From the NCBI GenBank assembly GCA_003222055.1, contig QHUT01000053.1, positions 48,769 through 112,768 of the forward strand: DNA of 64,000 bases. Direction: 5' to 3'. This document shows, piece by piece, positions 21,310-50,595 of this stretch. The first letter of the stretch is position 1, and every line of letters begins with the position of its first letter. The DNA comes from Gemmatimonadota bacterium. Lineage in GTDB: Bacteria > Gemmatimonadota > Gemmatimonadetes > Gemmatimonadales > GWC2-71-9. The position numbers and the translations under genes are program-made. The notes beneath the pieces are model-generated. The model did no database searches. It had not been told where the DNA came from and saw only the letters and a program-made list of their open reading frames with translations.

Positions 21310-21329
21310 GCAGGCCGTCCTCCTTGCCA

Positions 21330-21510: not shown

Positions 21511-22632
21511 GGGCGTCCAGTCCTCGAAGGTGCGGACCGTGCGATAGAGCGAATCGCGCTCCACCGGCTCCTTCCCCGCGCCGCGGATGAGGGAGACGAT
21601 CTGGTCGTAGGAGAGCCACATCGGTGTGGCGGCGCCGGCTTCGTGGTACACGCGCTCGAACACCACCGTACCCTCGAGGTCGTCGCACCCGAACGTGAGC
21701 GCCACCTGCGAGATGAACGGTGTCACCATGGGCCAGTGGGTTTTCACATGCGGGATGTTGTCGAGCACCAGACGCCCCACCGCAATGTTCTTCAGGTCGT
21801 CGAACCCCGTCGTCGCCGTGCCGGTGCGGCCCAGCGCTTCGCCCAGCTCGTTGTGGTCGGGGTGGTAGGCGAGCGGGATGTATGTGAGGAATCCGCGGGT
21901 TTCGTCCTGCAGCGCCCGCAGCGCCAGCAGGTGGTCCACGCGGTCCGCGAGCGTCTCGACGTGCCCGTAGAGCATCGTGCAGTTCGAGGGGATGCCCAGC
22001 CGGTGCGCCTCGCGGTGTACGCCGAGCCATTCCTCGCCGGAGAGCTTCTTGTCGGCGATGGTCGCGCGCGCCGCCGGGCTGAACACTTCGGCACCGCCGC
22101 CCGGGAGGCTGGTGACGCCCGCCTGCTGCATCGCGACGAGCACATCGCGCACGCTCATCCGCTCGAGGCGCGCGAGATGGGCCACTTCGACGGCGGTGAG
22201 CGCCTTGATGTGCACGCCCGGGTGGCGGGCCGCGAGGCCCCGGAACAGGTCCAGGTAATAGGACAGCCGCACCGTGGGGTGCAGGCCGCCCACGATGTGG
22301 AACTCGCGGGTCGGGTTGTCGCGCGCCGCCTCGGCTTCGGCGAACACCTCGTCCAGGCTGCGGGTATAGGCGCCCGCCTCGCGCGGCATCCGTGCGAACG
22401 AGCAGAACACGCAGGTGTTGCGCAGCACGCACACGTTGGTCGGGTTGATGTGCTGGTTCGCCGCGAACGATACGCGATCGCCGTTGTTGCGACGGTTGGC
22501 GAGGTCGGCGAGCCGGCCGATCGTCAGGAGGTCGTTGGACTGAAACAGCGCGAGCGCGTCGTCGCGGGTCAGGCGCTCGCCGCCCTGGACCTTCTCCCCG
22601 ATGGGGATGAGAACCGGATCCCGGGCGGTCAT
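21364..22632 (-). CDS. mqnE: Aminodeoxyfutalosine synthase (radical SAM)
   Basis: HINPTNVC..TCVFCSF, HIVGG, PGGGAEVF, TMLYGHVE, IPLAYHP; adjacent to mqnA and mqnC. Confidence 0.9.
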   Translation of the reverse strand: MTARDPVLIPIGEKVQGGERLTRDDALALFQSNDLLTIGRLADLANRRNNGDRVSFAANQHINPTNVCVLRNTCVFCSFARMPREAGAYTRSLDEVFAEAEAARDNPTREFHIVGGLHPTVRLSYYLDLFRGLAARHPGVHIKALTAVEVAHLARLERMSVRDVLVAMQQAGVTSLPGGGAEVFSPAARATIADKKLSGEEWLGVHREAHRLGIPSNCTMLYGHVETLADRVDHLLALRALQDETRGFLTYIPLAYHPDHNELGEALGRTGTATTGFDDLKNIAVGRLVLDNIPHVKTHWPMVTPFISQVALTFGCDDLEGTVVFERVYHEAGAATPMWLSYDQIVSLIRGAGKEPVERDSLYRTVRTFEDWTPTDPGRKPGVPGVRPEGPEGPTFEISHRPQARARGQRTLPVLQAIESAE

Positions 22633-22727
22633 GGGCGTCGGCGATTGCGGATTGCGGATTTCGGATTGCGGATTGGAAGGACCGCGTGTCGAATCCGCAA
22701 TTCGCAATCCGCAATCCGCAATTTCAT
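22629..22727 (-). CDS. Putative coupling-relay mini-ORF, 32 aa (MKLRIADCELRIRHAVLPIRNPKSAIRNRRRP)
   Basis: ATG overlaps fabF TGA (ATGA); its TGA overlaps mqnE ATG (ATGA). Confidence 0.5.
   Translation of the reverse strand: MKLRIADCELRIRHAVLPIRNPKSAIRNRRRP
22643..22723. repeat. Inverted heptamer array (GATTGCG)4.5-17 nt-(CGCAATC)4.5
   Basis: Read directly from sequence; predicted ~32-bp hairpin. Confidence 0.95.
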
Positions 22728-23968
22728 GCGGCCCGGCGGATGGCGAGCGTCACGTTGTGCCCGCCGAACCCGAAGGAATTCGACAGGGCCACGTCCACCG
22801 GCCGCTTCACGACTTTGTTGGGCGCGGAGTCGAGGTCGCAGGCGGGATCGGGCGTGAACTGGTTGATCGTCGGGGGGATGGTCCCGCGCTGCACCACCAG
22901 GGCGCACACCGCCGCCTCGAGGGCGCCGGCCGCCCCCAGCAGGTGACCGGTCATCGACTTGGTGGAGCCGAAGACCAGCTTACGGGCCTGCTCGCCGAAC
23001 ACCGCCTTCACGGCGGCCGTCTCGGCGGCGTCGCCGTGCGGCGTGGACGTGCCGTGCGCGTTGATGTAGCCGACCTCCCGCATCCCGACCCCGCCGTCCT
23101 TCAACGCCAGCCGCATGGCCTCCTGCGCTCCCGAGCCGTCGGGTGCCGGGGCGGTGATGTGGTGCGCGTCCGCGCTCTGGCCGAACCCCACGACCTCGGC
23201 GTAGATCTTCGCTCCACGTCGCCGGGCGTGCTCCCACTCCTCGAGGATCAGCACCCCCGCGCCGTCGCCCATCACGAATCCGTCCCGGTCCTTGTCGAAC
23301 GGGCGGCTGGCGGTCTCCGGGCTGTCGTTGCGTTCGGACAGCGCCTTCATGTTCGCGAAGCTGGCGACCGCGAGCGGCGTGATGGCGGCTTCCGCCCCGC
23401 CCGCGATCATGATGTCCGCTCGATCGTGGCGGATCAACTCGAGCGCATCCCCCACGCTGTGGGCGGACGACGCGCACGCCGACACCGTGCAGTAGTTCGG
23501 CCCCTGCGCGCCGTAGCGCATCGAGATCAGCGCCGCGGCCACGTTCGGCATGTACATGGGCACGAAGAACGGGGACACACGGCTCGGTCCCTTCTCGAAC
23601 AGGGCGCGGCAGTTCTCTTCGAAGGTCTGCAGCCCTCCGGTGCCCGTGCCGATCAGGACGCCCACCCGCTTCAGGTTCACCGTCTGCCAGCTGGCGGCCA
23701 GGCAGGCGTCGGCCACGGCCTGCTCCGCGGCGCCGATCGCGAACTGGGCGAACAGATCGTAGCGGCGGATTTCCTTCTTGTCGAGGAACCGCGCCGGGTC
23801 GAAGCCCTTCACCTCGCACGCGAACTTCACGGGGCTCTGCGCCGGGTCGAACCGCGTGATCGGCCCGGCCCCCGAGCGGCCCCCGAGCAGGCCGTCCCAC
23901 GTGCTCTGGACATCCGTTCCCAACGGCGTCACGAGCCCCAGGCCCGTGATCGCGACCCGGCGCGTCAT
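22724..23968 (-). CDS. fabF: 3-oxoacyl-ACP synthase II
   Basis: VSACASS, YINAHGTST, KSMTGHLLGAAG, SNSFGFGG. Confidence 0.97.
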   Translation of the reverse strand: MTRRVAITGLGLVTPLGTDVQSTWDGLLGGRSGAGPITRFDPAQSPVKFACEVKGFDPARFLDKKEIRRYDLFAQFAIGAAEQAVADACLAASWQTVNLKRVGVLIGTGTGGLQTFEENCRALFEKGPSRVSPFFVPMYMPNVAAALISMRYGAQGPNYCTVSACASSAHSVGDALELIRHDRADIMIAGGAEAAITPLAVASFANMKALSERNDSPETASRPFDKDRDGFVMGDGAGVLILEEWEHARRRGAKIYAEVVGFGQSADAHHITAPAPDGSGAQEAMRLALKDGGVGMREVGYINAHGTSTPHGDAAETAAVKAVFGEQARKLVFGSTKSMTGHLLGAAGALEAAVCALVVQRGTIPPTINQFTPDPACDLDSAPNKVVKRPVDVALSNSFGFGGHNVTLAIRRAA

Positions 23969-23972
23969 GCGG

Positions 23973-24224
23973 CTATTTCCCCATCTTTTCGTGCAGGTAC
24001 TGCAGCGCCTGCCCCACGGTGCGCAGCTTTTCGGCTTCCTCGTCGGGGATGTCGATGTCGAATTCTTTTTCGAACGCCATCACCAGCTCCACGGTGTCGA
24101 GGCTGTCCGCGCCCAGGTCTTCCATGAAGCTCGCGTCGGACGTCAGCTTGTTCCGTTCGACGCCCAGCTCTTCGACGATGATGTCCTTGACCTTCTCTTC
24201 GAGCTGCTTCATGTCCATTGCCAT
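23973..24224 (-). CDS. acpP: Acyl carrier protein
   Basis: [20 protein letters not shown]; SD GAGGA upstream. Confidence 0.97.
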
Positions 24225-24255
24225 GGGTGTCCTCAAAGGAGGTGTGGGAAAAAGG

Positions 24256-24996
24256 TCACAGCACCATCCCGCCATCGACGACCAGCACCTGACCCGTAAT
24301 GTAGCTCGCGAAGTCGGATGCGAGAAAGAGCACCGCCGCCGCGACGTCCGTGCCCTCGCCCAGCCGGCCCAGGGGGATCGCCCCGATCAATGCGTCCCGC
24401 GCCTCGCCATGGATGGCGCGCGTGAGCTCCGTATCGATGAACCCCGGGGCCACCGCGTTCACGAGCACATTGCGCGAGGCCAGCTCCTTGGACACCGCCT
24501 TGGTGAAGCCGATCAACCCCGCCTTCGACGCCGTGTAGTTCGCCTGCCCCTTGTTGCCGGCGATGCCGACCACGCTCGTGATGTTGACGATCCGGCCCCA
24601 GCGCCGCTTGATCATGCCGCGGGCGGCGTGCTTCGTCACCAGGAACGCCCCCTTCAAATTGATGTCGAGGACCGTGTCCCAGTCGTCCTCGCCGATCCGG
24701 AACAGCAGGTTGTCGCGGGTCGTGCCCGCGTTGTTCACGAGCACGTCGACGCGCCCGAAATCCCGCTCCACGGCGGCGACCACCGTTTCCACCTGCCCCG
24801 CGTCGGCGACGTCGCAGGCGTACCCTTGGCCCGTGCCGTCGCCCAGCGCCTTGGCCGTCTCCTGGGCCCGACCGCCGTCGCGCGCCAGGACGGCGACGCG
24901 GGCGCCCGCGCGCGCCAACGTCTGCGCGATCGCGTGGCCGATCCCGCGGGTCCCCCCCGTCACGATGGCGACCTTCCCGGTGAGGTCGATCTTCAT
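24256..24996 (-). CDS. fabG: 3-oxoacyl-ACP reductase
   Basis: [30 protein letters not shown]. Confidence 0.97.
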
Positions 24997-25103
24997 ACCA
25001 ACCGCCCCGATTGCGGATTGCGGATTGTGGATTGCGGATTCGCGGTTGGGAGTTCGCTGCGCCAAATCCGCAGTCCGCAATCCACAATCCGCAATCGATT
25101 CAA
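24993..25103 (-). CDS. Putative coupling-relay mini-ORF, 36 aa ([36 protein letters not shown])
   Basis: TTG overlaps fabD TGA (TTGA, SD GGAGG upstream); its TGA overlaps fabG ATG (ATGA). Confidence 0.5.
   Translation of the reverse strand: MNRLRIVDCGLRIWRSELPTANPQSTIRNPQSGRLV
25008..25097. repeat. Inverted heptamer array (GATTGCG)4.5-24 nt-(CGCAATC)4.5
   Basis: Read directly; the GATTGTG/CACAATC variant occurs once in each arm. Confidence 0.95.
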
Positions 25104-26056
25104 GCCGCCTCCAGGAACTTCGCCACCTCATCGGCCGTCCCCAGCGAGACCACGCTCGCCCCCGCCACGATGCGCCGCAGCAGCCCGGCGAGAACGTTGC
25201 CCGGACCGATTTCGATGAAGCGGGTGGACTCGCCCGCATCCGCGAGCTCGGCCGCGCGCTGCATGCAGGCCACCCAGCGGACCGGCGCGGTGAGCTGGTC
25301 GGCGAGCAGGCGGCGCGCGCGGGCGGCGTCGCGTACGGGCTCCGCGGTCGCGTTCGCGACGACCGGAAACGCCGGATCGCGGAACGGCGCGTGCTCGAGC
25401 GCCACGCGCAGTTGATTGGCCGCCGGGGCCATGAGCGAGGAATGAAACGCGCCACTCACCTTGAGCGGGATCACCCGTTTGGCCCCCCGCCGTTTGCAGG
25501 CGTCGCCGGCCCGGGCCACGGCGTCGGGGTCGCCCGAGATGACGGTTTGGTCGGGGGCGTTCAGGTTCGCCGGGACGGCCACCGCGTCGCCCGTCGATGC
25601 CTCGCGGCACGCGGCCTCGACCTCGGCCGTGGCGAGCCCGAGCACGGCCGCCATGGTCCCAGGGCGCGCCGTGCCCGCCTGGTGCATCAGCTCGCCGCGG
25701 CGCCGCACGAGGGCCGCGGCGTCGGTCGCCGGCAGCGCGCCGGCCGTCACGTAGGCCGAGTACTCGCCCAGCGAGTGTCCGGCGGCGGCGACGGCGGGCC
25801 CGGGGGTCGCGGGGCCCACCACGGCGAACACGGCGACGGTGTGCGCCAGGATCGCCGGCTGCGCATTGTGGGTGGCCGTCAGCTCGTCCTCGGGCCCGTC
25901 GAACATCAGGCGGCTGAGGGAGACCGCCAGGGCCTCGTCGATCGCGCCGAGCGCGTCGCGCGCCGCCGGGAATCGTGCGGCGAGGTCTTTGGCCATCCCG
26001 ACTTTTTGGGCGCCCTGCCCGGGGCACAACCAGATCGTGTTGCCCGCGGCTACCAC
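25100..26056 (-). CDS. fabD: Malonyl-CoA:ACP transacylase
   Basis: PGQGAQ, AQPAIL, GHSLGEY, SGAFHS, EIGPG. Confidence 0.96.
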   Translation of the reverse strand: MVAAGNTIWLCPGQGAQKVGMAKDLAARFPAARDALGAIDEALAVSLSRLMFDGPEDELTATHNAQPAILAHTVAVFAVVGPATPGPAVAAAGHSLGEYSAYVTAGALPATDAAALVRRRGELMHQAGTARPGTMAAVLGLATAEVEAACREASTGDAVAVPANLNAPDQTVISGDPDAVARAGDACKRRGAKRVIPLKVSGAFHSSLMAPAANQLRVALEHAPFRDPAFPVVANATAEPVRDAARARRLLADQLTAPVRWVACMQRAAELADAGESTRFIEIGPGNVLAGLLRRIVAGASVVSLGTADEVAKFLEAA

Positions 26057-27036
26057 TGCACCACCAGGCTCGCCCAGGTGAAGCCCGCGCCGAACGCGCT
26101 GAACATCACCTTCATGCCCGGTTGGAGGCGACCGCCGCGCACCGCCTCGTCGAGCGCGATCGCCACCGACGCCGCCGAAGTGTTGCCGTAGCGGTCCACG
26201 TTCACGTAGACCTTGTCCATGGGGAGGCCGGCGTGCTTGGCCGTGGCTTCGATGATCCGGATGTTCGCCTGGTGGGGAATGAGGAGATCGATGTCGCCGC
26301 TCGTGAGGCCGGCGCGCTCGAGCGCCTTGTCGCACGCGTCCGCCATCGACAGCACCGCCGCCTTGAACACCTCGCGTCCCGCCATCTTGATGTAGTACGA
26401 GTGGTCCGTGAGCAGGGCTTGATCGGGCGGGTGGGCGGCGCCGCCGCCCGGGCGGTAGAGCAGCTCGGCGAGCGTGCCGTCCGATTTCATGTAGCTCGAG
26501 AGAATGCCCCGGCCGGCGCGGCTGGGGCGCACCAGCGTCGCGCCGGCGCCGTCGCCGAACAGCACCGCGGTGCTGCGGTCGCTCCAGTCCATGATGGCGG
26601 TGAGCTTCTCGGATGCGACCACGAGCACGTGCCGGGCCTGCTCGCTCGCCACGAGCCCCTCCGCGACGTTGAGCGCGTAGAGGAAGCCGGTGCAGGCTGC
26701 CCCCACGTCGAAGGCCGCCGCGTGTTTCGCGCCCAGCAGGGCCTGGAGATCGCACGCCTGGGAGGGCAGCAGTCGGTCGGGGGAGCAGGTCGCCAGCACC
26801 ACGGCATCGAGGTCGAGCGGCGTGAGTCCGGTCTCCTTGAGCACCTGCTCCGCGGCCGCCTTCGCCATGCAGGCGTTCGACTCGTCCGGGCCCGCGACCC
26901 GCCGCTCCCGGATCCCGGTGCGCTCGCGGATCCACTGGTCCGACGTGTCGAGCTTGCTCGAGAACTCGTCGTTCGTCATCACGCGTTTGGGCGTGTACCG
27001 ACCCGTGGCCACGAGCTCCGCGATGGGGCGCTTCAT
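26050..27036 (-). CDS. fabH: 3-oxoacyl-ACP synthase III
   Basis: AACTGF, FGDGAGA, PHQAN, YGNTSAAS, FGAGFTW. Confidence 0.97.
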   Translation of the reverse strand: MKRPIAELVATGRYTPKRVMTNDEFSSKLDTSDQWIRERTGIRERRVAGPDESNACMAKAAAEQVLKETGLTPLDLDAVVLATCSPDRLLPSQACDLQALLGAKHAAAFDVGAACTGFLYALNVAEGLVASEQARHVLVVASEKLTAIMDWSDRSTAVLFGDGAGATLVRPSRAGRGILSSYMKSDGTLAELLYRPGGGAAHPPDQALLTDHSYYIKMAGREVFKAAVLSMADACDKALERAGLTSGDIDLLIPHQANIRIIEATAKHAGLPMDKVYVNVDRYGNTSAASVAIALDEAVRGGRLQPGMKVMFSAFGAGFTWASLVVQW

Positions 27037-28040
27037 CGCGGTGCACCTCCCTCGGCGAGCTCCGCCACGATGTCCTGATCGAGGTGGCTCGTCACCATCT
27101 GGGCCGCGACGCGCACGGCGTTCTTGATCGCGCGCGCCGGCGAGGCACCGTGACAGATGATCACGACCCCTTTCACGCCGAGCAGCGGCGCGCCGCCCTG
27201 CTCCGAGTAGTCCAGGAACTTGAACAGCTGCTTCGCTTCGGGCCGGCCCAGCACGTCGGGGAACGCCTGCGTCATCATGCCCATGAACATGCGGCCGGCG
27301 GATTCGTAGAACTTGAGGACCACGTTCCCGACGAAGCCGTCGCACACCACCACGTCGATCCGGCCCTGCTTGCATTGACCCGCCAGGATGTCCCGGCCCT
27401 CGACGTTGCCGACGTAGCGAATGCCCGCCGTCTGCTTGAGGAGCTGGTGCGCTTCCTTCACGACGGCATTGCCCTTCTCGTCCTCCTCGCCCACGTTGAG
27501 GAGGCCGACGCCGGGCCGCGACTGGTCCAACACGTCGCGTACGTACACCGAGCCGAGGTGGGCGAAGCCCACCAGCTCGCGCGCGTCGCAGTCCACGTTG
27601 GCGCCGCCATCGAGCACCAGGACGGGATGCGCGGCCGTGGGAAAGAGCGCGCCGATCGCCGCGCGCTGCACGCCTTCGTGCAGGCGGAGCATCAGGGTCG
27701 CGGCCGCCATCACGGCCCCGGTGTTCCCGGCCGAGATGAACGCATCGCTCGTGCCCTGCTTCTGGAGGCCGATCCCGACGGCGACGGACGAGCGGGGCTT
27801 GCCCTTGACGGCGGCCAACGGCTTCTCGCCCATGCCGACCACCTCCGGTGCCTCGACGATCTCGAGGCGGTCGCGATCGACCGCGCCGAGCGTCTTCAGC
27901 GCGGCCTCGATATCGCGGGTCCGCCCCACGAGCTGGATCCGGAACGTGGGAGGAAACTCGCGCAGCGCCTGGACCGCGCCCTCGACCTCCACGCGCGGGG
28001 CGTCGTCCCCGCCCATGGCATCCAGCGCGATGCGGATCAC
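27033..28040 (-). CDS. plsX: Phosphate acyltransferase
   Basis: IALDAMGGD, SAGNTGA, LLNVGEEDEKG, CDGFVGNV, GGAPLLG. Confidence 0.97.
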   Translation of the reverse strand: MIRIALDAMGGDDAPRVEVEGAVQALREFPPTFRIQLVGRTRDIEAALKTLGAVDRDRLEIVEAPEVVGMGEKPLAAVKGKPRSSVAVGIGLQKQGTSDAFISAGNTGAVMAAATLMLRLHEGVQRAAIGALFPTAAHPVLVLDGGANVDCDARELVGFAHLGSVYVRDVLDQSRPGVGLLNVGEEDEKGNAVVKEAHQLLKQTAGIRYVGNVEGRDILAGQCKQGRIDVVVCDGFVGNVVLKFYESAGRMFMGMMTQAFPDVLGRPEAKQLFKFLDYSEQGGAPLLGVKGVVIICHGASPARAIKNAVRVAAQMVTSHLDQDIVAELAEGGAPR

Positions 28041-28042
28041 CG

Positions 28043-28225
28043 TTAGGCGTCCTCTACCGCTACCCGCTGCTCGTCGCGGTAATAGCCGCAGGTGGGACAC
28101 ACCCGATGCGGGCGCTTCAAGTCGCCGCACCGCGGGCAGGGTTGCAGCGCGATGGGAGCCGCCTTGTAATGGGTGCGGCGGGCGCGCTTCTTCCGCTTGG
28201 AGGTCCTTCGCTTCGGTACGGCCAT
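28043..28225 (-). CDS. rpmF: 50S ribosomal protein L32 (Zn-ribbon type)
   Basis: MAVPKRRTSK, CPRC..PHRVCPTCGYY. Confidence 0.97.
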   Translation of the reverse strand: MAVPKRRTSKRKKRARRTHYKAAPIALQPCPRCGDLKRPHRVCPTCGYYRDEQRVAVEDA

Positions 28226-28239
28226 GGAATCGTCCTCTT

Positions 28240-28749
28240 TCAGTCGCGGAGCTTGGGCTTCAAGGCGGTCAGGCCGCTCCAGCGTTGGTCCGCCGCCGGC
28301 GGGCAGCCGCAGGGGCCCGCGTTCAAGTCCGTGCCGCAGCGCGGGCACAGGCCGCGGCAGTCGTCTCGACACACGATCCACTGAGGCACGGCCAGCAGCA
28401 GCTCCTCACGCAGGGCGACGCGGAGATCGATCGCCGTCGCGTCCCGCGCCAGGGAATAGGAGCTCGGGTCCTCCAGGGCATCCGGATCCTGGGAAAACAG
28501 GGCGTCCACGTCCGCGACCACCGGGACGGTGACGGCGGCAAGGCAGCGCCTGCATTCCCCGGCCATCCGGGTGCGGAGCGACGCTCGCCAGTAGAAACGC
28601 CCTTCACCGGCCGCCTGCAAGCGGCCTGCCACGCGCACCGGCTCGGCAAGGGCGACGTTGACCCCCTCGAACAGCGGGTCATTCCCTGCGAGTTGGCCCG
28701 GCGTGTCCACCGGGCCCCGGGCGAGCTCCCGCAGGTCGACCTGTAACAT
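28240..28749 (-). CDS. yceD: DUF177/YceD family protein
   Basis: ECRRCL, CRDDCRGLCPRCG; upstream of rpmF. Confidence 0.92.
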   Translation of the reverse strand: MLQVDLRELARGPVDTPGQLAGNDPLFEGVNVALAEPVRVAGRLQAAGEGRFYWRASLRTRMAGECRRCLAAVTVPVVADVDALFSQDPDALEDPSSYSLARDATAIDLRVALREELLLAVPQWIVCRDDCRGLCPRCGTDLNAGPCGCPPAADQRWSGLTALKPKLRD

Positions 28750-28758
28750 GCGAAACCG

Positions 28759-28787
28759 AAGCTAAACCGTTGTGGGACTTGCGTCAA
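28759..28787 (-). promoter_or_regulatory. sigma70 promoter TTGACG-17-TAGCTT of the yceD-rpmF-fab-mqn operon
   Basis: Near-consensus hexamers, 17-nt spacer, 9 nt before ATG. Confidence 0.75.
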
Positions 28788-28792
28788 GCGAA

Positions 28793-29224
28793 CTAGTGGC
28801 GGCCTCCCGAGAGCTCCCGCAACTCCCCCTCGGCGAAGAAAAAGGCCACTTCCCGGGCGGCGTTTTCGGGCGAGTCCGAGGCGTGGATCGCATTCCGCTC
28901 CTTGGATTCGGCGTACAGCTTGCGCACGGTGCCGGGCTTCGCTTCGGCGGGGTCGGTCGCGCCGATGACCTCGCGTAACCGAGCGACCGCATCGTCGCGC
29001 TCGAGCGCGAGGGCCAGTGCCGGTCCGGACGTCATGAAGGTCACGAGCGAGCGGTAGAACGGGCGCTCGCGATGCACTTCATAGAACCCCGCCGCCTGGG
29101 CGCCGGTGAGCTTCACGAGACGCGCGGCGCGGATCACGAATCCCGCGCCCTCCAGGTGCGCCAGGATCTTGCCCGTGTAGCCCGCGCCCACGGCGTCGGG
29201 CTTGATGATGGCGAGTGTGAGCAT
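28793..29224 (-). CDS. ndk: Nucleoside diphosphate kinase
   Basis: TLAIIKPDAV, FMTSGP, GATDP, NAIHASDS. Confidence 0.97.
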   Translation of the reverse strand: MLTLAIIKPDAVGAGYTGKILAHLEGAGFVIRAARLVKLTGAQAAGFYEVHRERPFYRSLVTFMTSGPALALALERDDAVARLREVIGATDPAEAKPGTVRKLYAESKERNAIHASDSPENAAREVAFFFAEGELRELSGGRH

Positions 29225-29238
29225 GCTGGGAGCTGGGG

Positions 29239-30147
29239 TTAGGGAGCGATGAGGCGGCGGACCACGTCGGCCCGGGTCAGGAACCCGACGACCACGCCCT
29301 CGCGTACCACGGGGAAGCGATCGACGTCCTTCGAGCTCATCAGGTTGGCGACGTCCGACAGGGTCTGGTCCTCCGCCAGACAGAGCACTGAGCGCCCCAT
29401 GGCTTCCTTGACGGGAATGAGCCGCGGGTCCGCCGAACCTCGCTGCAGCTGCGAACGCGTGGGCGCCCGGAACTCACCGCTCTTGGTCCGCTGCACGAAA
29501 TCGGGGATCAAGTACCGCAACAGCTCGCGATGCGTGACCATGCCGATGAGCGAGCCGCCCTCGTCCACCACCGGCATGGCGCGGATGTCGCGCTCCACCA
29601 TGAGGTGGGCCACCTCTCCCAAGGTCCGGTCCGGGCCGACCGTGATGGCGTGCGGCGTCATCACGTCTCGTACGGTGAGCTGGCTCGGCAGCTCGACGGC
29701 ATCGAGCGCCGGGAGCGCCAGCACCTGCTCGGGCGTGCGCGCAGCCAGGAGCGCCAGGACGTTGTCCGGGCTCGAGAGCGTGCGCGCGAAGGCTCCGACC
29801 ACCTGCAGGTACAGCGCCGCCTCGCGCAGTGGCGCGACGATGAAAATCACGACCCGGGCAGCGCGGTGCGGATCCTTCTCCCAACGGATCGGCGTGGGAG
29901 AGATGCCGAGCGCCGTCACGAGGCCGCGCACGGCCTCCGTGCGAAAGTGGGGCAGGAAGGCGTGCTCTCCCACACTCAACATGTCCTCGGGCCAGGTGTG
30001 CCGGATCACGGCGCTCAAGCGGTGGGGGTCGGCCACCGCGCCGCTCTCCACGAGACGCTCGGTCAGGCGCTCGGTGGCCTCTTTCACCGTGCCGGCGCTC
30101 AGGGGGACGATGATGTGCTCCGCCTTCAGGACGTCGCGCAGCTTCAC
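29239..30147 (-). CDS. PTS EIIA-type-2 domain + tandem CBS domain protein
   Basis: N-terminal [21 protein letters not shown] (EIIA fold, PH motif); C-terminal CBS pair ([23 protein letters not shown]). Confidence 0.75.
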
Positions 30148-33093: not shown

Positions 33094-33105
33094 GGCGGCG
33101 AGAAC

Positions 33106-36983: not shown

Positions 36984-36997
36984 TGGACCCCGGCGCC

Positions 36998-40008: not shown

Positions 40009-40011
40009 GGG

Positions 40012-41994: not shown

Positions 41995-42290
41995 CAGCCC
42001 TTGAGCAGGTTGATGTGCTGCAGATCGACCGTGTGGCGGTGCCGGTACACGGCGAGGATGATCGCCAGTCCGACGGCGGCTTCGGCCGCCGCGACGGCCA
42101 TGACGAAGAAGACGAAAATCTGACCGGCGACGCCGAGCTGCTGCGCGAAGGCGACGAATGCCAGGTTGGCGGCGTTCAGCATCAACTCGACGCACATGAA
42201 GATGACGATCGCGTTGCGGCGCAGTAGCACGCCCAGCACGCCCAACGCGAACAGCGCTGCCGAGACGGCGAGGGCGGGTCCGAGCAGCAT
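41994..42290 (-). CDS. nuoK: NADH-quinone oxidoreductase subunit K
   Basis: [28 protein letters not shown]. Confidence 0.97.
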
Positions 42291-42793: not shown

Positions 42794-42794
42794 G

Positions 42795-43301
42795 CTACTC
42801 GCCCTTGGGGTCCGAGGGGTCCCACAACGTCGAGACGGGGTGCGTCTGGGCGCACAGCCGCTCGAGGTCGTACACGAACCGGTCGCGCGAAAACTCCGAG
42901 TTCTCGTAGTGGACGCCCACGTGGATCGCCTCTTCGGGGCAGACTTCCTGGCAATACCCGCAGAACACGCAGCGGAATTCGTCGATCTCGTAAATGAGCG
43001 GGTAGCGGTTGCCCGCCTCGTCTTCTCCGGGCACGAGCTTGATGCAGTTCGCGGGACAGATTTGGGGGCACAGCCCGCAGGCGACGCACTTGGCGCGTCC
43101 CTGCTCGTCGGTGAGCATGCGGTGCGTGCCGCGCCACCGGGGGGACAGCGTCCAGTCCTGGCTGCTCTTCTCCTCGGGATACTGCATCGTCACCTTGGGC
43201 CGGAACAGATGCTGCAGGGTGAGGGCCATGCCCTGGAGGGTCGCCCGGACGTAGGACACCTTCGTGCCCGGCCGCTTCATCACCTTGACGCCGATCGCCA
43301 T
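42795..43301 (-). CDS. nuoI: NADH-quinone oxidoreductase subunit I
   Basis: QYPEE, CVACGLCPQICP, CVFCGYCQEVCP. Confidence 0.97.
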   Translation of the reverse strand: MAIGVKVMKRPGTKVSYVRATLQGMALTLQHLFRPKVTMQYPEEKSSQDWTLSPRWRGTHRMLTDEQGRAKCVACGLCPQICPANCIKLVPGEDEAGNRYPLIYEIDEFRCVFCGYCQEVCPEEAIHVGVHYENSEFSRDRFVYDLERLCAQTHPVSTLWDPSDPKGE

Positions 43302-44464
43302 CAGGCCTCCACCACGGAGCCCGCGACGATGCGGCCACGGTCGAGCACGAAGAACAGCGGCACCGCGAGCACCAGGTTCAGCGCGAACAGCGCCAGGGCG
43401 AAGCGCGTGTCGTACGTCCAGCCGAGGCCGTCGTGCAGGAACCAGATGGCGGTCGCGATCACCGTCACGTAGGTGAGCGCCAACGGCAGCATCACCTTCC
43501 ACCCCAGCGCCATCAGCTGATCGTACCGGAAGCGCGGCAAGGTCCAGCGCACCCAGATGTAGAGGAACAAGAAGAGAACCACCTTCGCCGAAAACATCGT
43601 GAGCGTGGCGAGGGTCTTGAGTATCGTCCACGGTGGGGTGTTGTCCCACGTCGTGAACGGGATATCCCAGCCGCCGAAAAACAGCGTGGTCATCAGGGCC
43701 GACGCGGTCACCATGTTCGAGTACTCGGCGATGTAGAACATCGAGAACTTCATGGCGCTGTACTCGGTGTGATAGCCGGCGATCAGCTCGCCCTCTGCCT
43801 CCGGCAGGTCGAACGGCAGCCGGTTGGTCTCGGCGAAGGCCGCCACGAGGAAAATGAAGTACGCGAGCGAGAGTGGGAACACGTTCCAGGTGAACAGCGA
43901 CTGGGATTGTTTCGCGATCACGTCCGTGAGCGTCACGTTGCCGGCGATGAGCAGCACGGCCACGGTGCTCAGGCCCATCGCGATCTCGTAGGAGATCATC
44001 TGCGCGGTCGCCCGCAAGCCGCCCAGCAGCGAATACTTGTTGTTCGACGACCAGCCTGCCAGCACGATGCCGTACACGCCGAGCGACCCGAAGGCGAGGA
44101 TGTACAGGAATCCGACGGGCAGGTCGGCCACGACCATGTCCACGTCGCCCCACCGGGTGGGGAGCGGCGTGGCGAACGGGATCACCGCGAACGTGAGGAG
44201 CGCCGGGACGAACGACATGGTCGGGGCGAGCATGAAGAGCACCCGGTCCGCCTGCGCGGGAAGCGTTTCCTCCTTCACGAGGTTCTTCAGGCCGTCGGCG
44301 GCGGGCTGGAGCAACCCCTGGGGGCCCACCCGGTTCGGGCCGAGGCGGTCCTGCATCCAGGCGCAGATGCGCCGCTCGGCGAGCGTGAGCAGCGCCACGC
44401 CCACCATGATCACCGTGAACACCACGATGATCTTGATGGCGGACGCGACCAGGAAGACGCTCAT
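43301..44464 (-). CDS. nuoH: NADH-quinone oxidoreductase subunit H
   Basis: QDRLGPNRVGP, AETNRLPFDLPEAE, RFRYDQLM. Confidence 0.97.
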   Translation of the reverse strand: MSVFLVASAIKIIVVFTVIMVGVALLTLAERRICAWMQDRLGPNRVGPQGLLQPAADGLKNLVKEETLPAQADRVLFMLAPTMSFVPALLTFAVIPFATPLPTRWGDVDMVVADLPVGFLYILAFGSLGVYGIVLAGWSSNNKYSLLGGLRATAQMISYEIAMGLSTVAVLLIAGNVTLTDVIAKQSQSLFTWNVFPLSLAYFIFLVAAFAETNRLPFDLPEAEGELIAGYHTEYSAMKFSMFYIAEYSNMVTASALMTTLFFGGWDIPFTTWDNTPPWTILKTLATLTMFSAKVVLFLFLYIWVRWTLPRFRYDQLMALGWKVMLPLALTYVTVIATAIWFLHDGLGWTYDTRFALALFALNLVLAVPLFFVLDRGRIVAGSVVEA

Positions 44465-46011
44465 ACCGCGACCGGTACGGCCGCGGGCTTCCCGACGAAC
44501 CCCAGCTGCTCGTAGGACAGGCCGCGGAGGGCGTCGATCGCCTGCGCCACGCGCTCGAACGCCTCGGCCGCGCTGCCGACAGGCTCGCCGTGGCCCAGCG
44601 CCGCCCCCAGTTCGGAGAACACCCACCAGGCGGGCCGCGCCATGCCCGGCGCCGGCTTGGCCTGCGCGTAGCGTTGCACCCGGCCGTCCCGGTTCACGAA
44701 GCTCCCGTCCTCCTCAGCGACGTTCGCAATCGGCAGCACGACTTCGGCGTCACGTGCGCGCTCGGGGAGCACCGTTCCCACATAGATGAGCGTGCCTGCG
44801 CGCACCGGAATGTCTGGCTCGTCGAGCACCAGCACGACGGCGGCCGATTGGGCCGCCGCCAGCGCGGCCGCGTACTCACGACCGTAGCCGAGCAGCTCGG
44901 CGCCCCGCCCGTTGGGCGCCCGCTCGGCGCGCAGCGCGAGGTCCGGCACGCCCGCGAGCGGCGCCTCCTCGCCCATCACCACCTGGAACGCCCCCGTCCA
45001 GTCGAGGCCCCGGAACAGCTCGCGCGCGAAAAACAGCGCCTCCGTGGACGCCCGCGGAGACACCAGCGACACGACCCGCGGGCCCGCCCCCCGCAGCGTG
45101 GTCGTCACGCGCTCCAACGCGTCCTGCCAGTCCGTGGCGTGCAGCTCGCCACCGCGCTTGACGAGCGGGGCCTCGATCCGGTCGCCGCGGTTCATCCAGC
45201 GGTAGTTCATGCGGCCGTGGTCGCAGATGAAGTAGCGGTTCACCTCGAGGTTCGGTCGCGGGCGCACGCGCACGACGACGTTCTCGCGCGTGTCGAGTGT
45301 GACGTTGCATCCCTGCGAGCAACCGGTACAGAGGGAGGCGGTCTTGTCGAGCTCCCAGGCGCGCGCCTTGTGCAGGAAGTCCTTGGACAGGAGCGAGCCC
45401 ACCGGGCACAGATCGACCACGTTCCCTGCCCACGGGTGGTCGAGCCGGGTCTCCGGGTGCACGCCGATGTAGGCCCGATCCCCGCGCTCCGACACGTTCA
45501 GCACGGGCTCCCGGGCGACATCCTCCATGAACCGCACGCAGCGCGTGCACAGAATGCACCGGTTGGGCACGTACAACACGTCGGGGCCGAAGTCTTCGAC
45601 CGGGTTGAAGCGCTTGGGATAATCGGGGCTGTACCGTGTCCCCGCGCGGCCCTCCTGGAAGGTGAAGTCCTGCAGCTCGCACTCGCCGGCCTGATCGCAA
45701 ATCGGGCAATCGAGCGGATGGTTGATGAGCAGGAACTCGAGCACGCCGGTGCGGGCGCTCTTGGCCGCGGCGGACTGCGTTTTCACCACCATCCCTTCGG
45801 CGACCTGGGTGGCACACGAGATGGCCAGCTTGGGCTGCTTCTCGATCTCGACCAGACACATGCGGCACACGCCCGCCACCGGCAGACCGGGGTGGTAGCA
45901 GTAGTGTGGGACCAGTACCCCCGCCTGCTTCGCGGCCTCGATGACGAGCATGCCCTTCGAGACGCTGACCGGGACGCCGTCGATTGTCAGATTGACGAGC
46001 TCTTCAGGCAT
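44461..46011 (-). CDS. nuoG: NADH-quinone oxidoreductase subunit G (short form)
   Basis: HYCYHP..CRMCLVE, HPLDCPICDQAGEC, RCILCTRC, CTGCSQGC; 516 aa. Confidence 0.95.
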   Translation of the reverse strand: MPEELVNLTIDGVPVSVSKGMLVIEAAKQAGVLVPHYCYHPGLPVAGVCRMCLVEIEKQPKLAISCATQVAEGMVVKTQSAAAKSARTGVLEFLLINHPLDCPICDQAGECELQDFTFQEGRAGTRYSPDYPKRFNPVEDFGPDVLYVPNRCILCTRCVRFMEDVAREPVLNVSERGDRAYIGVHPETRLDHPWAGNVVDLCPVGSLLSKDFLHKARAWELDKTASLCTGCSQGCNVTLDTRENVVVRVRPRPNLEVNRYFICDHGRMNYRWMNRGDRIEAPLVKRGGELHATDWQDALERVTTTLRGAGPRVVSLVSPRASTEALFFARELFRGLDWTGAFQVVMGEEAPLAGVPDLALRAERAPNGRGAELLGYGREYAAALAAAQSAAVVLVLDEPDIPVRAGTLIYVGTVLPERARDAEVVLPIANVAEEDGSFVNRDGRVQRYAQAKPAPGMARPAWWVFSELGAALGHGEPVGSAAEAFERVAQAIDALRGLSYEQLGFVGKPAAVPVAV

Positions 46012-46051
46012 TACCCTTCCCTCTTCTCTCGTCCCCCGTCCCCGTCGTCAT
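46004..46051 (-). CDS. Putative coupling-relay mini-ORF, 15 aa (MTTGTGDERRGKGNA)
   Basis: ATG overlaps nuoF TGA (ATGA); its stop overlaps nuoG start (ATGCCTGA). Confidence 0.4.
   Translation of the reverse strand: MTTGTGDERRGKGNA
46016..46043. repeat. Second heptamer family: CTTCCCT CTTCTCT CGTCCCC CGTCCCC
   Basis: Four 7-nt units fill most of the nuoF-nuoG gap. Confidence 0.65.
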
Positions 46052-47328
46052 GCCACCATCACCGGCTTGCGTCGCCCTGCGATGTAATCCTCGAACTCGC
46101 TTCTGAACTTCTTGATCCCCGAGACGACGGGCGCGGCGCACGAGTCCGACAGCACGCAGATCGTCTTGCCCGTCATGTTCTCCGAGAGGTCGAGCAGCAG
46201 GTCCAGGTCGGCCGTCTTGCCCTGCCCGGCCAGGATGCGCTCGAGGATCTTGGTGGTCCACGCCGTGCCCTCGCGGCACTGGGTGCATTGCGCGCACGAC
46301 TCGTGGGCGTAGAAGCGGGCCAGCCGCATGATCTGGTACACCATGTCCGTCGAGTCATCGAACACGATGACGCCTCCCGAGCCGAGCATCGAGCCCCGCT
46401 CGACGACGCCTTCGTAGTCGAGGAGGCAGCTCTCGGTCTCCGCCCGGTCGAGAATCGGCACCGACGAGCCCCCGGGGATGCACGCCTTGAGCGTCCGGCC
46501 GGGACGCATGCCGCCGCACAGCTCGTACACCAGGTCCTTCAGCGGAAATCCCAACGTCACCTCGTAGTTTCCCGGCTGCTGCACGTGGCCGCACACCGAG
46601 AAGAGCTTCGTGCCGGTGCTCTTGGGCGACGAGAGCGACAGACCCTTGTACCAGACGGCGCCCTTGGTGAGGATGTGCGGCACGGCGGCGAGGGTCTCGA
46701 CGTTGTTGATCGTGGTGGGCATGCCGAACACGCCGGCGGCCGCGGGAAACGGCGGCTTGATCCGGGGGTTGCCGCGCTTCCCCTCGATCGAGCTCATGAG
46801 CGCCGTCTCTTCGCCGCAGATGTAGGCACCCGCGCCGCGGTGCAGATGGATCTTGAGCTTGCCGAATACGCCGGCGGACCGGGCATCGGTGAGGGCCTTG
46901 TCCATGATCGCCAGCGGCTCGGTGAACTCGCCGCGGATGTAGATGTAGGCCACCTCGGCCTGGATCGCGTGCGCGGCGATGGCCGTGCCCTCGAGCAGGG
47001 CGTGCGGCGTCCACCGCATGATTTCGCGGTCCTTGAACGTCCCCGGCTCGGATTCGTCCGCGTTCACGCACAGGTAGTGCGGTTTCTTCTTCTCCTTGGG
47101 CATGAACGACCACTTGAGCCCCGTGGGGAAGCCGGCGCCCCCGCGCCCGCGCAGCCCCGAGTCCTTCACGATGTCGACGACCCGCGCGGGCTCCATCGCG
47201 CGCGCCTGCTCGAGCGCGGCGTACCCCCCGCGCTTCACCCACCCCTTGTAGTTGCGCGCATCCGCCTCGCCGAAGTAGCGGGAGAGGAGCACGGTCTCTT
47301 TGGGATGCGGTTTGTGGGGGAAGCCCAT
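46048..47328 (-). CDS. nuoF: NADH-quinone oxidoreductase subunit F
   Basis: GLRGRGGAGFPTG, NADESEPGTFKD, GAGAYICGEET, ESCAQCTQCREG. Confidence 0.98.
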   Translation of the reverse strand: MGFPHKPHPKETVLLSRYFGEADARNYKGWVKRGGYAALEQARAMEPARVVDIVKDSGLRGRGGAGFPTGLKWSFMPKEKKKPHYLCVNADESEPGTFKDREIMRWTPHALLEGTAIAAHAIQAEVAYIYIRGEFTEPLAIMDKALTDARSAGVFGKLKIHLHRGAGAYICGEETALMSSIEGKRGNPRIKPPFPAAAGVFGMPTTINNVETLAAVPHILTKGAVWYKGLSLSSPKSTGTKLFSVCGHVQQPGNYEVTLGFPLKDLVYELCGGMRPGRTLKACIPGGSSVPILDRAETESCLLDYEGVVERGSMLGSGGVIVFDDSTDMVYQIMRLARFYAHESCAQCTQCREGTAWTTKILERILAGQGKTADLDLLLDLSENMTGKTICVLSDSCAAPVVSGIKKFRSEFEDYIAGRRKPVMVA

Positions 47329-47468
47329 CACGAAACCTCATTGCGGATTGCGGATTGCGGATTGCGGATTGGCACGGCCGGGTCCGATGCTCCACGCCGG
47401 CCTTCGGGCTCGACGAGCGCGCGGTCAAGTCCGCAATCCGCAATCCGCAATCCGCAATCGTCGTTCAC
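47328..47468 (-). CDS. Putative coupling-relay mini-ORF, 46 aa (MNDDCGLRIADCGLDRALVEPEGRRGASDPAVPIRNPQSAIRNEVS)
   Basis: GTG overlaps nuoE TGA (GTGA, SD GAGG upstream); its TGA overlaps nuoF ATG (TGATG). Confidence 0.5.
   Translation of the reverse strand: MNDDCGLRIADCGLDRALVEPEGRRGASDPAVPIRNPQSAIRNEVS
47340..47460. repeat. Inverted heptamer array (GATTGCG)4.5-57 nt-(CGCAATC)4.5
   Basis: Read directly from sequence. Confidence 0.95.
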
Positions 47469-47986
47469 TTGTACTTCCTCACGAGCTCCGGAACCCTGTC
47501 CGGCGTGACGGACTCAATGAAGTCGTCGTCCACCAGCACGGGCGTCGCGAACCCGCAGGCGCCGAGGCACTCCACCTCGATCACGGTCCACTTGCCGTCC
47601 GGGCTCGTGGCGCCGAGCTCCTTGGCTCCGGTCGCCTCGAGCAGCGCCTGCACCACCGCCTCGGCACCGCAGATGTTGCAAGGCGACGTGGTGCACACCT
47701 GGACGAAGTGCCTCCCGACAGGATGCTGGTGGTACATGGTGTAGAACGTGACCACGCCCTTGACGTAGGCGGGCGTCAGCCCCAGCACTTCGGCGACTTC
47801 CGCCATGTTGCGGTCCGAGATCCAGCCGCGCGCCCGCTGCACCAGCCACAGCGCCGGCAAGAGCGCCGCCTGCCTGGTGGGGTAGCGCGCCAGGATTTCG
47901 TTGAGCTGCTCGAGCATCTGTTCGGTGAAGACGGGCTGGTACTCCTCCGTGCCCGCTGGCTGAGACGGATGCGCGCCGACACTCAT
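47465..47986 (-). CDS. nuoE: NADH-quinone oxidoreductase subunit E
   Basis: VVTFYTMY, VCTTSPC, ECLGACG. Confidence 0.96.
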   Translation of the reverse strand: MSVGAHPSQPAGTEEYQPVFTEQMLEQLNEILARYPTRQAALLPALWLVQRARGWISDRNMAEVAEVLGLTPAYVKGVVTFYTMYHQHPVGRHFVQVCTTSPCNICGAEAVVQALLEATGAKELGATSPDGKWTVIEVECLGACGFATPVLVDDDFIESVTPDRVPELVRKYK

Positions 47987-49248
47987 CGATCCACCTCGCC
48001 CATGACGATGTCCACCGAGGCGTTGATCGCGATCAAGTCGCTCAACAGGTGCCCCGCCGCCATCCGCGGCAGGGCCGAGAGGTTGATGAACGAGGGGGGC
48101 CGAATGCGCCAGCGCACCGGTTTCGCCGTGCCGTCCGACACCAGGTAGGTGCCGAGCTCGCCCTTGGGGTTCTCGATCCCCACGTAGGCCTCGCCCACGG
48201 GCGCCTTCACGCCCTCCATGACCTGCTTGAAGTGGTAGATCATCGCCTCCATGTCGTTCATCGCCCGCGATTTGGGGGGGAGGATCACGCGCGGGTCGGC
48301 GATGTTGACCGGGCCGTCGGGCAGCCGATCGAGCGCCTGTTGAAGGATGCGGTTCGACTGGGAGCATTCCTCGAGACGCACGAGGTAGCGGTCGTACACG
48401 TCGCCGTGCTCGCCCACCACGACGTCGAAATCATAGGTCTCGTAGTCCAGATAGGGCTTGTCCTTGCGCACGTCGTAGGCTACGCCGCTCGCGCGCAGCA
48501 TCGGGCCGGAGAGCGAGTGGTTGATCGCCTCGCCCGCCGTGAGCACGCCGACGCCCTGGGTGCGACCGACCCACACGGCGTTGCGCGTCAGGACGCGGTC
48601 GATCTCGCTCAGCGTCTTGGGGAACGTCCGGGTGAAGTGGCGCAGCCCCGCGACGAAGTCGTCGGGCACGTCCGCCATCAGGCCGCCGACGCGTGTCACG
48701 CTGGTGGTGAGCCGGGCGCCCGTCCACATCTCCTGGAGATTGTAGATCCGCTCGCGCTCCTGGAATGCCCACAGGAACGGCGTGAACGCCCCCAGGTCGA
48801 TCGACGTCGTGCCGAGCCACACCATGTGGGAGATGATCCGGCTCATCTCGCACGCGATCACGCGCAACACGGTACAACGTGGCGTGATCGTGATCCCCAT
48901 GAGCTTCTCCGCCGCCAGCGCGAAGCCGACGTTGTTGGCCATGGGGGACAGGTAGTCCGTGCGGTCGGTGAGGGGGATGATCTGGTTGTAGTGCCGATAC
49001 TCGCCCAGCTTTTCGAAGCCGGAGTGGAGATACCCCAGGTGCGGGATCACCTGGACCACGGTCTCGCCGTCCAGCTCGACCACGAGCCGCAGCACCCCAT
49101 GTGTGGCGGGATGCTGCGGCCCGATATTGATGAGCATGTGCTCGGCGTCGAGGTTGGGCTCGGCCACGCCGAGCGGCACCCGCAGCGGCTCACCGCGGGC
49201 ATCCAGCCCGGGCGTCGCGAGCTCGAGCTCGACCGTGCGTTTGCTCAT
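47983..49248 (-). CDS. nuoD: NADH-quinone oxidoreductase subunit D
   Basis: NIGPQHPATHGVLRL, SGPMLRASG, ENPKGE, DIVMGEVDR. Confidence 0.98.
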   Translation of the reverse strand: MSKRTVELELATPGLDARGEPLRVPLGVAEPNLDAEHMLINIGPQHPATHGVLRLVVELDGETVVQVIPHLGYLHSGFEKLGEYRHYNQIIPLTDRTDYLSPMANNVGFALAAEKLMGITITPRCTVLRVIACEMSRIISHMVWLGTTSIDLGAFTPFLWAFQERERIYNLQEMWTGARLTTSVTRVGGLMADVPDDFVAGLRHFTRTFPKTLSEIDRVLTRNAVWVGRTQGVGVLTAGEAINHSLSGPMLRASGVAYDVRKDKPYLDYETYDFDVVVGEHGDVYDRYLVRLEECSQSNRILQQALDRLPDGPVNIADPRVILPPKSRAMNDMEAMIYHFKQVMEGVKAPVGEAYVGIENPKGELGTYLVSDGTAKPVRWRIRPPSFINLSALPRMAAGHLLSDLIAINASVDIVMGEVDR

Positions 49249-49862
49249 TCCGGCTCGGGGACCGTGCCGCGCTCGCCGCGGCGCAGCCGCTCCTTCATGT
49301 CCGCGGGGAGCTCCTCGTACGCTTCGGCGATCGACAGCTCTTCCATCGAGTAGTGCGCCTCGGGGTGGGCGGCCAACGCCTGGCGGACCTGCTCGGCGCG
49401 GCTGAACCGGCCGCGCAGCGGGAAGTCTTTGCGCAGCGGGAAGCCCTCGGCGTAGGTCTCCCACATGAGGATGCGGCGCAGGTCGGGGTGCCCCCGGAAG
49501 GTGATGCCGAACATGTCGTACACCTCCCGCTCGAGCCAGTCGGCGCCGCGCCACAACGGGACCACCGAGTCGACCGTGAGGTCACCCTGCGGCTCGAGCT
49601 CCACCTTGACGCGGAGGTCGGCGCGGCGCGCCAGTGAGCGCAGGCCGTACACCACCTCGAGCGGTCGCTCCCGGTCGCGATACTCGACGGCGGTGACGTC
49701 CACCAAATAATCGTAGGTGTGCTCGGGCGTGTCGCGCAGCCAGGCCATCACGTCGCGCAGCGCATCGCGCCCGACGTAGACGATCGTGTCGCCGCACGAC
49801 TCGAGCGCGCGGCCGATCGCGGTGCCGAACGTCGCCCGCAGCGCGTCGACGGAAGGGTTCAC
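49245..49862 (-). CDS. nuoC: NADH-quinone oxidoreductase subunit C
   Basis: [30 protein letters not shown]. Confidence 0.97.
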
Positions 49863-50479
49863 GCCGAGCGGAACTGGTGGACGGAGTTCCCGAACGGCTC
49901 CGAGATCTCGTCGATCTCGCCGGGGGGGAGTCGCAAGCCGCGGTCGTCGAGCGGCTGCTCCTCGCGGCGCGGGACGCGATCGAACAGCGATTCACCCTTG
50001 ATCTTCTTGTGGAGGAGGAGCACCCCGTACAGCAGCCCCTCCGGACGCGGCGGGCAGCCGGGAACGTACACGTCCACCGGCACGATGGTATCGATCCCCT
50101 GCACCATCGCATAGTTGTCGAAGATGCCGCCGGTGGAGGCGCAGGCCCCCATCGAGATCACCCACTTGGGCTGCGGCATCTGGTCGTAGATGCGGCGGAT
50201 CACCGGCGCCAGCTTGAACGGCAGCCGGCCGGCGCAGATCAACACGTCCGCCTGGCGCGGTGAGAACGCCTGACGCTCCATCCCGAAGCGGGCGAAATCG
50301 TACCGGCTGGCGGCTGTGGCCATGAACTCGATGGCGCAGCAGGCCGTGCCGAAGGGCATGGGCCAGAGCGAGTTGGCACGCGAAGAGTTCACGGCCCAGT
50401 CCACGAGATCCTGAACCTTGGCGAGCAGGTAGTTCGGGCTCTGCCCGGATGTCTCTTTCGTCTCGATGACTCGCTTCAT
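49859..50479 (-). CDS. nuoB: NADH-quinone oxidoreductase subunit B
   Basis: [27 protein letters not shown]. Confidence 0.97.
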
Positions 50480-50595
50480 AGGTGAAATTCGTCCAGCGAA
50501 GTCGTCTCGCGACGACGTCTCGCGACGGCGTCTGGCGACGGCGTGCGACGTCCTTGTGCTACGTTCTCGCGTGACGCCTTCGCTTGACGTCTCAA
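50476..50595 (-). CDS. Putative coupling-relay mini-ORF, 39 aa ([39 protein letters not shown])
   Basis: TTG overlaps nuoA TGA (TTGA); its TGA overlaps nuoB ATG (ATGA); 40 codons with no internal stop. Confidence 0.45.
50500..50591. repeat. Imperfect 13-nt tandem array (GTCTCGCGACG(A/G)C) plus GTGCTACGT/GCGTGACGCC arm
   Basis: GTCTCGCGACGAC, GTCTCGCGACGGC, GTCTGGCGACGGC; motifs shared with 5990-6082. Confidence 0.7.

Follow-up and report, generated by a model that had tools for sequence, protein, structure and literature searches.

How do genes that are translated as a coupled series tolerate a repeat inserted between the stop codon of one and the next one's start codon? This question is raised by a stretch of 64,000 nucleotides (nt) from a soil Gemmatimonadota bacterium (assembly GCA_003222055.1, contig QHUT01000053.1, positions 48,769 to 112,768), hereafter the window, in which five gene junctions, all on the minus strand, hold an insert that is crossed by a small open reading frame (ORF). 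The source genome comprises 3.69 Mb with 69% G+C. Each mini-ORF starts on the TGA stop of the upstream gene and ends on the downstream gene's start codon, an arrangement that we refer to as a relay. This geometry is real and probably selected, if partial in extent, and we consider it probable that palindromic inserts at coupled junctions are kept where a ribosome can still cross them, with the relay layout under purifying selection and the peptide irrelevant.

Translation of the five stretches gave open frames of 32, 36, 15, 46 and 39 amino acids (aa) and thereby confirmed the coordinates and the start and stop overlaps listed by an earlier, sequence-only reading of this DNA. The relay at fabF>mqnE (22629..22727, 32 aa, ATGA to ATGA) runs through a GATTGCG-type heptamer hairpin with arms at 22692-22722 and 22643-22675 (-59.2 kcal/mol, z -5.3), and that at fabD>fabG (24993..25103, 36 aa, TTGA to ATGA) through a hairpin of the same type with arms at 25065-25096 and 25009-25045 (-64.4 kcal/mol, z -6.0). 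The nuoE>nuoF relay (47328..47468, 46 aa, GTGA to TGATG) crosses the strongest fold, a heptamer hairpin with arms at 47430-47459 and 47340-47371 (-83.0 kcal/mol, z -6.1). At nuoA>nuoB the insert folds into a 13-mer hairpin (repeat at 50503-50544; -53.6 kcal/mol, z -2.5), and because an in-frame ATG is present at 50601, 10 nt before the end of nuoA, a mini-ORF of 41 aa (50476..50601) is more likely there than one of 39 aa from TTG. The mini-ORF at nuoF>nuoG (46004..46051, 15 aa, ATGA start, -8 overlap with nuoG) is the weakest of the five cases; its frame class differs from that of the other four, it carries a degenerate single purine-rich arm, and no hairpin appeared when the insert was folded (z 0.09). 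A stable hairpin is thus found in four of the five inserts (z -2.5 to -6.1), three of them built from inverted GATTGCG-type heptamer arrays. The stop/start spacings at the two ends of the mini-ORFs, -4, -1 or -8 nt, fall into classes known for coupled gene pairs. Neither terminator-like sites (a hairpin followed by a U-tract on the coding strand) nor promoter-like sites were detected on the five inserts, the window held no Rfam match at gathering score, and a plasmid search with one insert as query returned a single short Nostoc match and nothing else.

Whether five such frames exceed chance has to be judged genome-wide. The sequence-only reading had put the chance of frame agreement at about (1/3)^5, an invalid null since heptamer arrays are stop-free, the five cases were picked afterwards, and they mix frame classes, nuoF>nuoG being of another class than the rest. 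Perfect arrays of the common heptamer units are in fact free of stops in every frame and on both strands, and 1302 of the 2026 TGA stops in the genome (64%) follow an A, G or T, which makes them part of a start codon. Gene calling, based on a codon-pair model in which overlaps earn no bonus, gave 3433 genes, and all starts were taken from these calls. The genome contains 252 heptamer arrays, against 0-51 for periods of 5-6 and 8-13; these arrays form 196 clusters and occupy 80 co-directional junctions, which makes the unit a dispersed repeat between operon genes. Roughly half of them fall within coding sequences, in frame, and give low-complexity loops in the proteins, and some paired arms stand hundreds of bases apart within one gene.

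A set of two-arm elements was then compiled from this genome and about 2.4 Mb of loci from its relatives, yielding 217 elements after removal of duplicates, 82 of them from this genome; the relatives' DNA is not a random sample, because its loci were chosen around the operons of the window and around pattern hits. Placement of the 217 was varied: 93 between co-oriented genes, 40 mid-gene, 18 in coupled N-terminal extensions, 27 at N-termini that have no upstream gene close by, nine in C-terminal extensions (six ending in a -4 overlap), nine between convergent or divergent genes, and 21 at an edge or too distant from a gene end. Within this genome 40 elements adjoin an upstream stop, comprising 13 double-overlap relays, 10 N-terminal extensions, one spaced relay, two near-overlaps and 14 that are neither. 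The 13 relays compare with 5.0 expected under a random frame (permutation, p about 2e-5), so that the excess of double-overlap ORFs in repeat gaps foreseen by the sequence-only reading was indeed found, although with only 13 of 40 junction hairpins concerned, the double-overlap relay is not the rule. As both ends of each insert were kept in the permutation and the frame alone was shuffled, the excess cannot be put down to a TGA motif that was inherited or duplicated. Deleting one or two bases in the middle of the inserts left 1.0 relay against the 13 observed (n=40). Ten of these relays map outside the window, and orthologues identify murE>murF, ftsW>murG and tsaE>tsaB among them.

Counted over all genomes with one row per junction, relays make up 16 of 59, against a null mean of 6.3. 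The ratio of relay frame to frame 0 is 18:4 for inserts with a restart codon and 1:5 for those without. When the junctions of the window are left out, 13 of 18 inserts in the relay frame reach an overlap, as opposed to two of 16 that were shifted into that frame. An initial test on this genome with 50 junctions and loose criteria was only suggestive (overlap 9/17 versus 3/16, p 0.07; frame p 0.023) and is superseded by the two-arm set. Genome-wide, the relay frame is likewise favoured in short gaps that lack repeats but have a TGA overlap at each end (21:5 versus 153:107, p 0.034). A Shine-Dalgarno-like run precedes the downstream start in six of 26 relay rows and 14 of 26 non-relay rows, counts in which the rows are not independent and the scored motif is the standard one, the 3' end of the 16S rRNA not having been recognised in the assembly.

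A distinct pattern was seen among inserts that lack a restart codon, which are in frame 0 in 19 of 28 rows and at nine of 16 junctions. At tdk>coaE (contig C67 near 1888, g2517>g1303; orthologues at L234:7304-7909 and 6218-7222) the upstream stop and the downstream gene share a frame in six of six genomes, the inserts measuring 75-84 nt, representing three unit types and all following TGA. Restart at +0 on a codon supplied by the first repeat unit, read-through, or descent may account for this.

The same junctions were compared among relatives, the nearest named ones by nuoF being Gemmatimonadales; five of the genomes (G019, G024, G001, G013 and G020) were sampled at a few loci each. At nuoE>nuoF the genus provides 23 alleles, of which 11 are empty (gap 0 or -1), every one ending in TAA or TAG, and 12 are filled (82-152 nt), all with TGA and 11 in the relay frame. 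Ten of the filled alleles are RTGA-to-TRATG relays, one depends on CTG and one ends flush with the start. The fabF>mqnE junction is empty in 12 cases and filled in seven, this genome included, with all seven in the relay frame, six overlapping and one 5 nt short. Long inserts at fabD>fabG are in the relay frame in five of five alleles (one with CTG) beside seven plain -4 overlaps, and five short gaps of 4 or 16 nt are themselves relays of 3-7 aa, while one gap of 14 nt is not. The nuoF>nuoG junction is mostly empty, with one 151-nt relay, the -8 case of this genome, and three short inserts without a relay; one relative (L256) has the same 36-nt gap and -8 layout in unrelated sequence. Two DNA sequencing runs contained contig pieces of 304-325 nt identical or nearly so across nuoF>nuoG, and these runs may derive from the source sample. 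The contigs of an RNA sequencing run yielded pieces from distant relatives only and hence say nothing on expression in this genome.

Of the 30 distinct gap lengths seen across the five junctions, 24 fit the relay frame, as do 20 of 25 when the lengths of this genome are omitted, which largely agrees with the expectation that length changes preserve the frame. The related expectation that empty sites would be plain overlaps holds in part: sister genomes often do have them, as in the seven -4 alleles of fabD>fabG, but the empty nuoE>nuoF alleles abut at gap 0 or -1 and end in TAA or TAG. On the trees of nuoF and of fabF, an allele can be filled in one genome and empty in its sister. Palindromes that are not heptameric form relays too (nuoF>nuoG in G013, fabD>fabG in G024, mqnE and its next gene in G022, murD>ftsW in G003, nuoE>nuoF in L262). 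Mixed frames occur where the junctions are not overlapped or where the insert has its own Shine-Dalgarno-like run. With respect to individual loci, the murD>ftsW element of G003 (L184) is a short palindrome of a different family that forms a 67-nt GTGA-to-GTGA relay where the genome of the window has a -4 overlap, and G022 possesses two nuo operons (L074 and L075, nuoF 94% and 86% identical to that of the window) with different nuoE>nuoF inserts, both of them relays.

The nuoA>nuoB junction has a history of its own. Among the 14 named relatives that were scored, 13 read NuoB in frame from an ATG or GTG lying 10 nt ahead of where nuoA ends, as does one of the 16 rows of the genus. In the other 15 the old NuoB frame is cut, leaving a 5-aa ORF (gap 4) in seven rows and longer ones at gaps of 16, 19, 31, 43 and 112 nt; the stop lies on the new nuoB start in 14 of the 15 and falls 13 nt short in one. 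A variant in sequencing run X2 has a nuoA>nuoB gap 81 nt shorter in which the frame, read by hand, is still open. Judged by these rows, the relay is the severed ancestral N-terminus of NuoB and is older than the repeat, the 13-mer having grown inside it in frame. The view that a repeat always brings the ORF is contradicted by the short, repeat-free relays of 3-5 aa at this junction and in several fabD>fabG alleles.

Taken as a whole, the data are best explained by selection for preserved coupling. Mobility or remodelling at the junctions, stop-free arrays, conservation of frame, and the absence of any such conservation of peptide or length are all demonstrated at the level of sequence comparison, and the proposal that the shared feature is the geometry and not the peptide stands far above chance both genome-wide and across relatives. 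Coupling is described as best at -4 to +3, fading past 30-40 nt and impaired by structure just behind the stop, and ribosomes are described there as able to unwind hairpins (PMC12548453). Comparison of genomes shows that dispersed palindromic elements, in most cases a pair of inverted arrays with a 7-nt unit, have been gained, lost and remodelled at the gene junctions of this genus. A hairpin of 80-150 nt would, given the effects of distance and structure, uncouple genes that rely on a stop/start overlap. In the alleles that are kept, the upstream stop would double as a start (mostly RTGA), the heptamer array is open in all frames, and the total length is, on statistical evidence, held such that the first stop reached overlaps the start of the next gene. 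The ribosome would accordingly terminate, restart, unwind the hairpin while making a meaningless peptide of 15-50 aa, terminate again and restart on the next gene, and alleles that break this cycle of termination and restart would mostly have been removed. The relay is probably one of three tolerated outcomes, beside N-terminal and C-terminal read-through, and also arises without repeats, as at nuoA>nuoB.

Several observations weigh against this explanation. All gene starts rest on our own gene caller, and one of the 13 relays (g2141>g596) was counted by way of a TTG, the called ATG standing 8 nt behind the stop. With the junctions of the window excluded, the bare frame excess of 18:9 has a p of 0.06. 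Among the 40 junction elements, 12 have a restart codon and yet no coupled outcome by our test, and for 10 the best reading is an N-terminal extension. Kin are not independent in the distinct-length counts, and single bases are all that separates the unit types; remodelling in place may therefore inflate the number of events. Broken alleles exist in otherwise intact genomes, with nuoA>nuoB 13 nt short in G003, fabF>mqnE 5 nt short in G004, and an overshoot of 16 nt at nuoF>nuoG in the second nuo copy of G022; two alleles require a CTG start.

Three other explanations have to be considered. [quoted passage not shown] In keeping with this, clean filled/empty pairs show the insert bounded by a direct repeat at the stop/start motif (5, 4, 4, 3 and 2 nt), and a restart codon is found at the upstream stop in 85% of the junction elements of this genome as opposed to 305 of the 928 gaps of 20-300 nt that lack repeats. 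However, the direct repeat reaches little further than the TGA motif (no extra bases after it in 12 of 18 relays), both lengths and loops cover a wide range, copies inside genes are in frame, other junction copies form extensions, relays without repeats exist, and no mobilising enzyme came to light; we regard a built-in fit of this kind as unlikely. The direct repeats of 2-5 nt are confined to five clean pairs and lacking in most others, and many copies lie inside genes. A long target-site duplication was also considered and is unsupported, the clean pairs having direct repeats of only 2-5 nt with little past the TGA motif.

That the relays are a neutral by-product, in which an insertion into an old ATGA overlap leaves TGA at both ends and a stop-free interior, one third falls in frame and the rest is descent, seems highly improbable. 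The stop-free arrays, the 64% of TGA stops preceded by A, G or T, the many inserts that are not relays and the alleles common to relatives by descent are all as expected from it, but with the ends kept and the frame shuffled, 13 of about 15 possible sites are still in the working frame, and distinct lengths at one junction retain that frame; the frame-shuffling, shifted-insert and distinct-length results have already largely refuted it. Relays could instead be adaptive regulators that tune subunit stoichiometry or tie mRNA cleavage or decay at the hairpin to translation, and their location in operons for complex I, fatty acids, the cell wall (murE>murF, ftsW>murG) and tRNA modification (tsaE>tsaB), like the repeated filling of the same junctions, would fit such a role. 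In sister genomes, nevertheless, the same junction is without the insert, there is conservation of neither length nor peptide, and the five inserts are devoid of terminator-like or promoter-like sites, which leaves this a very unlikely account of the whole. A bolder extension of selection for preserved coupling can be speculated, doubtful as we hold it to be: short palindromic elements, probably kin of four-helix-bundle cassettes, would use their 7-nt periodicity as a frame adaptor and colonise essential coupled operons, with gain and loss of units tuning between relay, N-terminal and C-terminal extension, and relay ORFs, including those from split N-termini such as that of NuoB, would make up a layer of operon translation that is general and selected and that sets downstream output. 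If this were true, each unit of a stop-free array would shift the frame by one and some units would supply ATG or TTG in every frame.

The kinship with four-helix-bundle genes is itself only a lead. The genome has 11 copies of these TIGR02436 genes, and a heptamer array flanks the 3' side in five of 10 inspected, compared with 11 of 300 random genes; it remains a lead because the detector found both arms in one of 10 and relatives have the 3' array in six of 29. At contig C142:8341-8800 a four-helix-bundle gene lies between both heptamer arms, in a frame that opens right behind the upstream stop.

The sequence-only reading knew of no named system with this layout, but the MIRUs of mycobacteria already have such a proposal: they are described as short dispersed repeats that insert at start codons, with an internal ORF coupled at -4 that likely eases insertion (PMC12548453). 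The junction elements resemble them as dispersed short repeats between operon genes with a mini-ORF that overlaps both neighbours (13 of 40 junction elements, at -4 and -1). By layout they would work like MIRUs, without having been shown to be MIRUs. They differ in that 27 of the 40 junction elements are not double-overlap relays, the host belongs to the Gemmatimonadales and so to another phylum, several unrelated repeat types make relays, -1, -8 and -10 geometries occur, and one relay predates its repeat. Moreover, four of the five inserts here are inverted heptamer or 13-mer arrays with strong hairpins, whereas the MIRU units of the original definition by Supply et al. in 1997 reportedly lack dyad symmetry.

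Palindromic elements of Rickettsia occur as in-frame palindromic insertions in proteins, and the 40 of 217 two-arm elements that are in frame within genes are similar by description; the Rickettsia elements are not known to have been described as junction relays. In ribosome delivery by short ORFs and in bicistronic designs, as outlined in one passage, a short ORF likewise serves only to bring the ribosome past structure to the coupled gene (PMC12548453), but here it is a by-product of repeat DNA and is coupled to the upstream gene as well, which makes the relay a two-step one. Pairs of convergent heptamer repeats in Xanthomonas and Nostoc (Rehm et al. 2015, PMC4692102) share about four 7-nt units, often in inverted pairs, mainly between co-oriented genes near stop codons, and are transcribed; they consist of other units and were studied as G-quadruplex formers, reading frames across the insert not being treated in the sections seen of that paper. 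A literature search, from which subscription journals were largely absent, turned up the MIRU passage and the heptamer papers in part (PMC12548453, PMC4692102, PMC4679880) and no paper that describes relay ORFs within hairpins made of heptamers.

The genes that flank the five junctions, all on the minus strand, were named by NCBIfam matches. Those above cut-off are fabF (22724..23968, TIGR03150), mqnE (21364..22632, TIGR03700), fabD (25100..26056, TIGR00128), fabG (24256..24996, TIGR01830), nuoF (46048..47328, TIGR01959) and nuoB (49859..50479, TIGR01957). The nuoE gene (47465..47986, TIGR01958) has its start from our own gene calls, and nuoG (44461..46011, TIGR01973) and nuoA (50592..50972, NuoA models) are under the curated cut-offs yet are best hits in the expected order. 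Overlaps of 1-4 nt had been ascribed to nearly all genes of these operons, which fits the nuo operon from nuoB on (eight of 10 insert-free junctions, the other two at +1 and +3) but not the window overall, where our own gene calls give 21 of 57 same-strand junctions. All five junctions singled out as relays are upheld, while three further repeat-bearing junctions, also on the minus strand, have no double-overlap relay. The single heptamer arm at moaD>moaE (63516..63546) contains a spaced 10-aa ORF (+4/+5) plus an in-frame ATG for MoaE, the 13-mer repeat at kdsD>lptC (6014..6088) is read as the N-terminus of LptC right behind the kdsD stop (TAA ATG), and the short palindrome after mqnE (21310..21363) has its own Shine-Dalgarno-like run. 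This palindrome follows a lengthened C-terminus of mqnE, is present in six genomes in mixed frames and occurs at another junction in G041. The junction before ndk (29225-29238 and orthologues) holds pyrimidine-rich repeat tracts of 14-81 nt, with mixed frames in relatives and no relay.

The relay layout itself is already named in the MIRUs; the fresh points are the split N-terminus of NuoB, from which it follows that a relay can arise without mobile DNA, and the allelic series. The MIRU proposal rests on layout, and the same essential junctions, described here both with and without an insert, add a quantitative sign of selection on the bridging ORFs. Their alleles, of many lengths and repeat types, constitute a ready allelic series with which termination-reinitiation and RNA-unfolding models could be set against each other across a hairpin of 60-80 kcal/mol. 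We contend that there would be a class of small ORFs whose translation products carry no meaning and which annotation and screens for small proteins would overlook or misread, and that relays of this kind offer one route by which repeats can persist inside operons.

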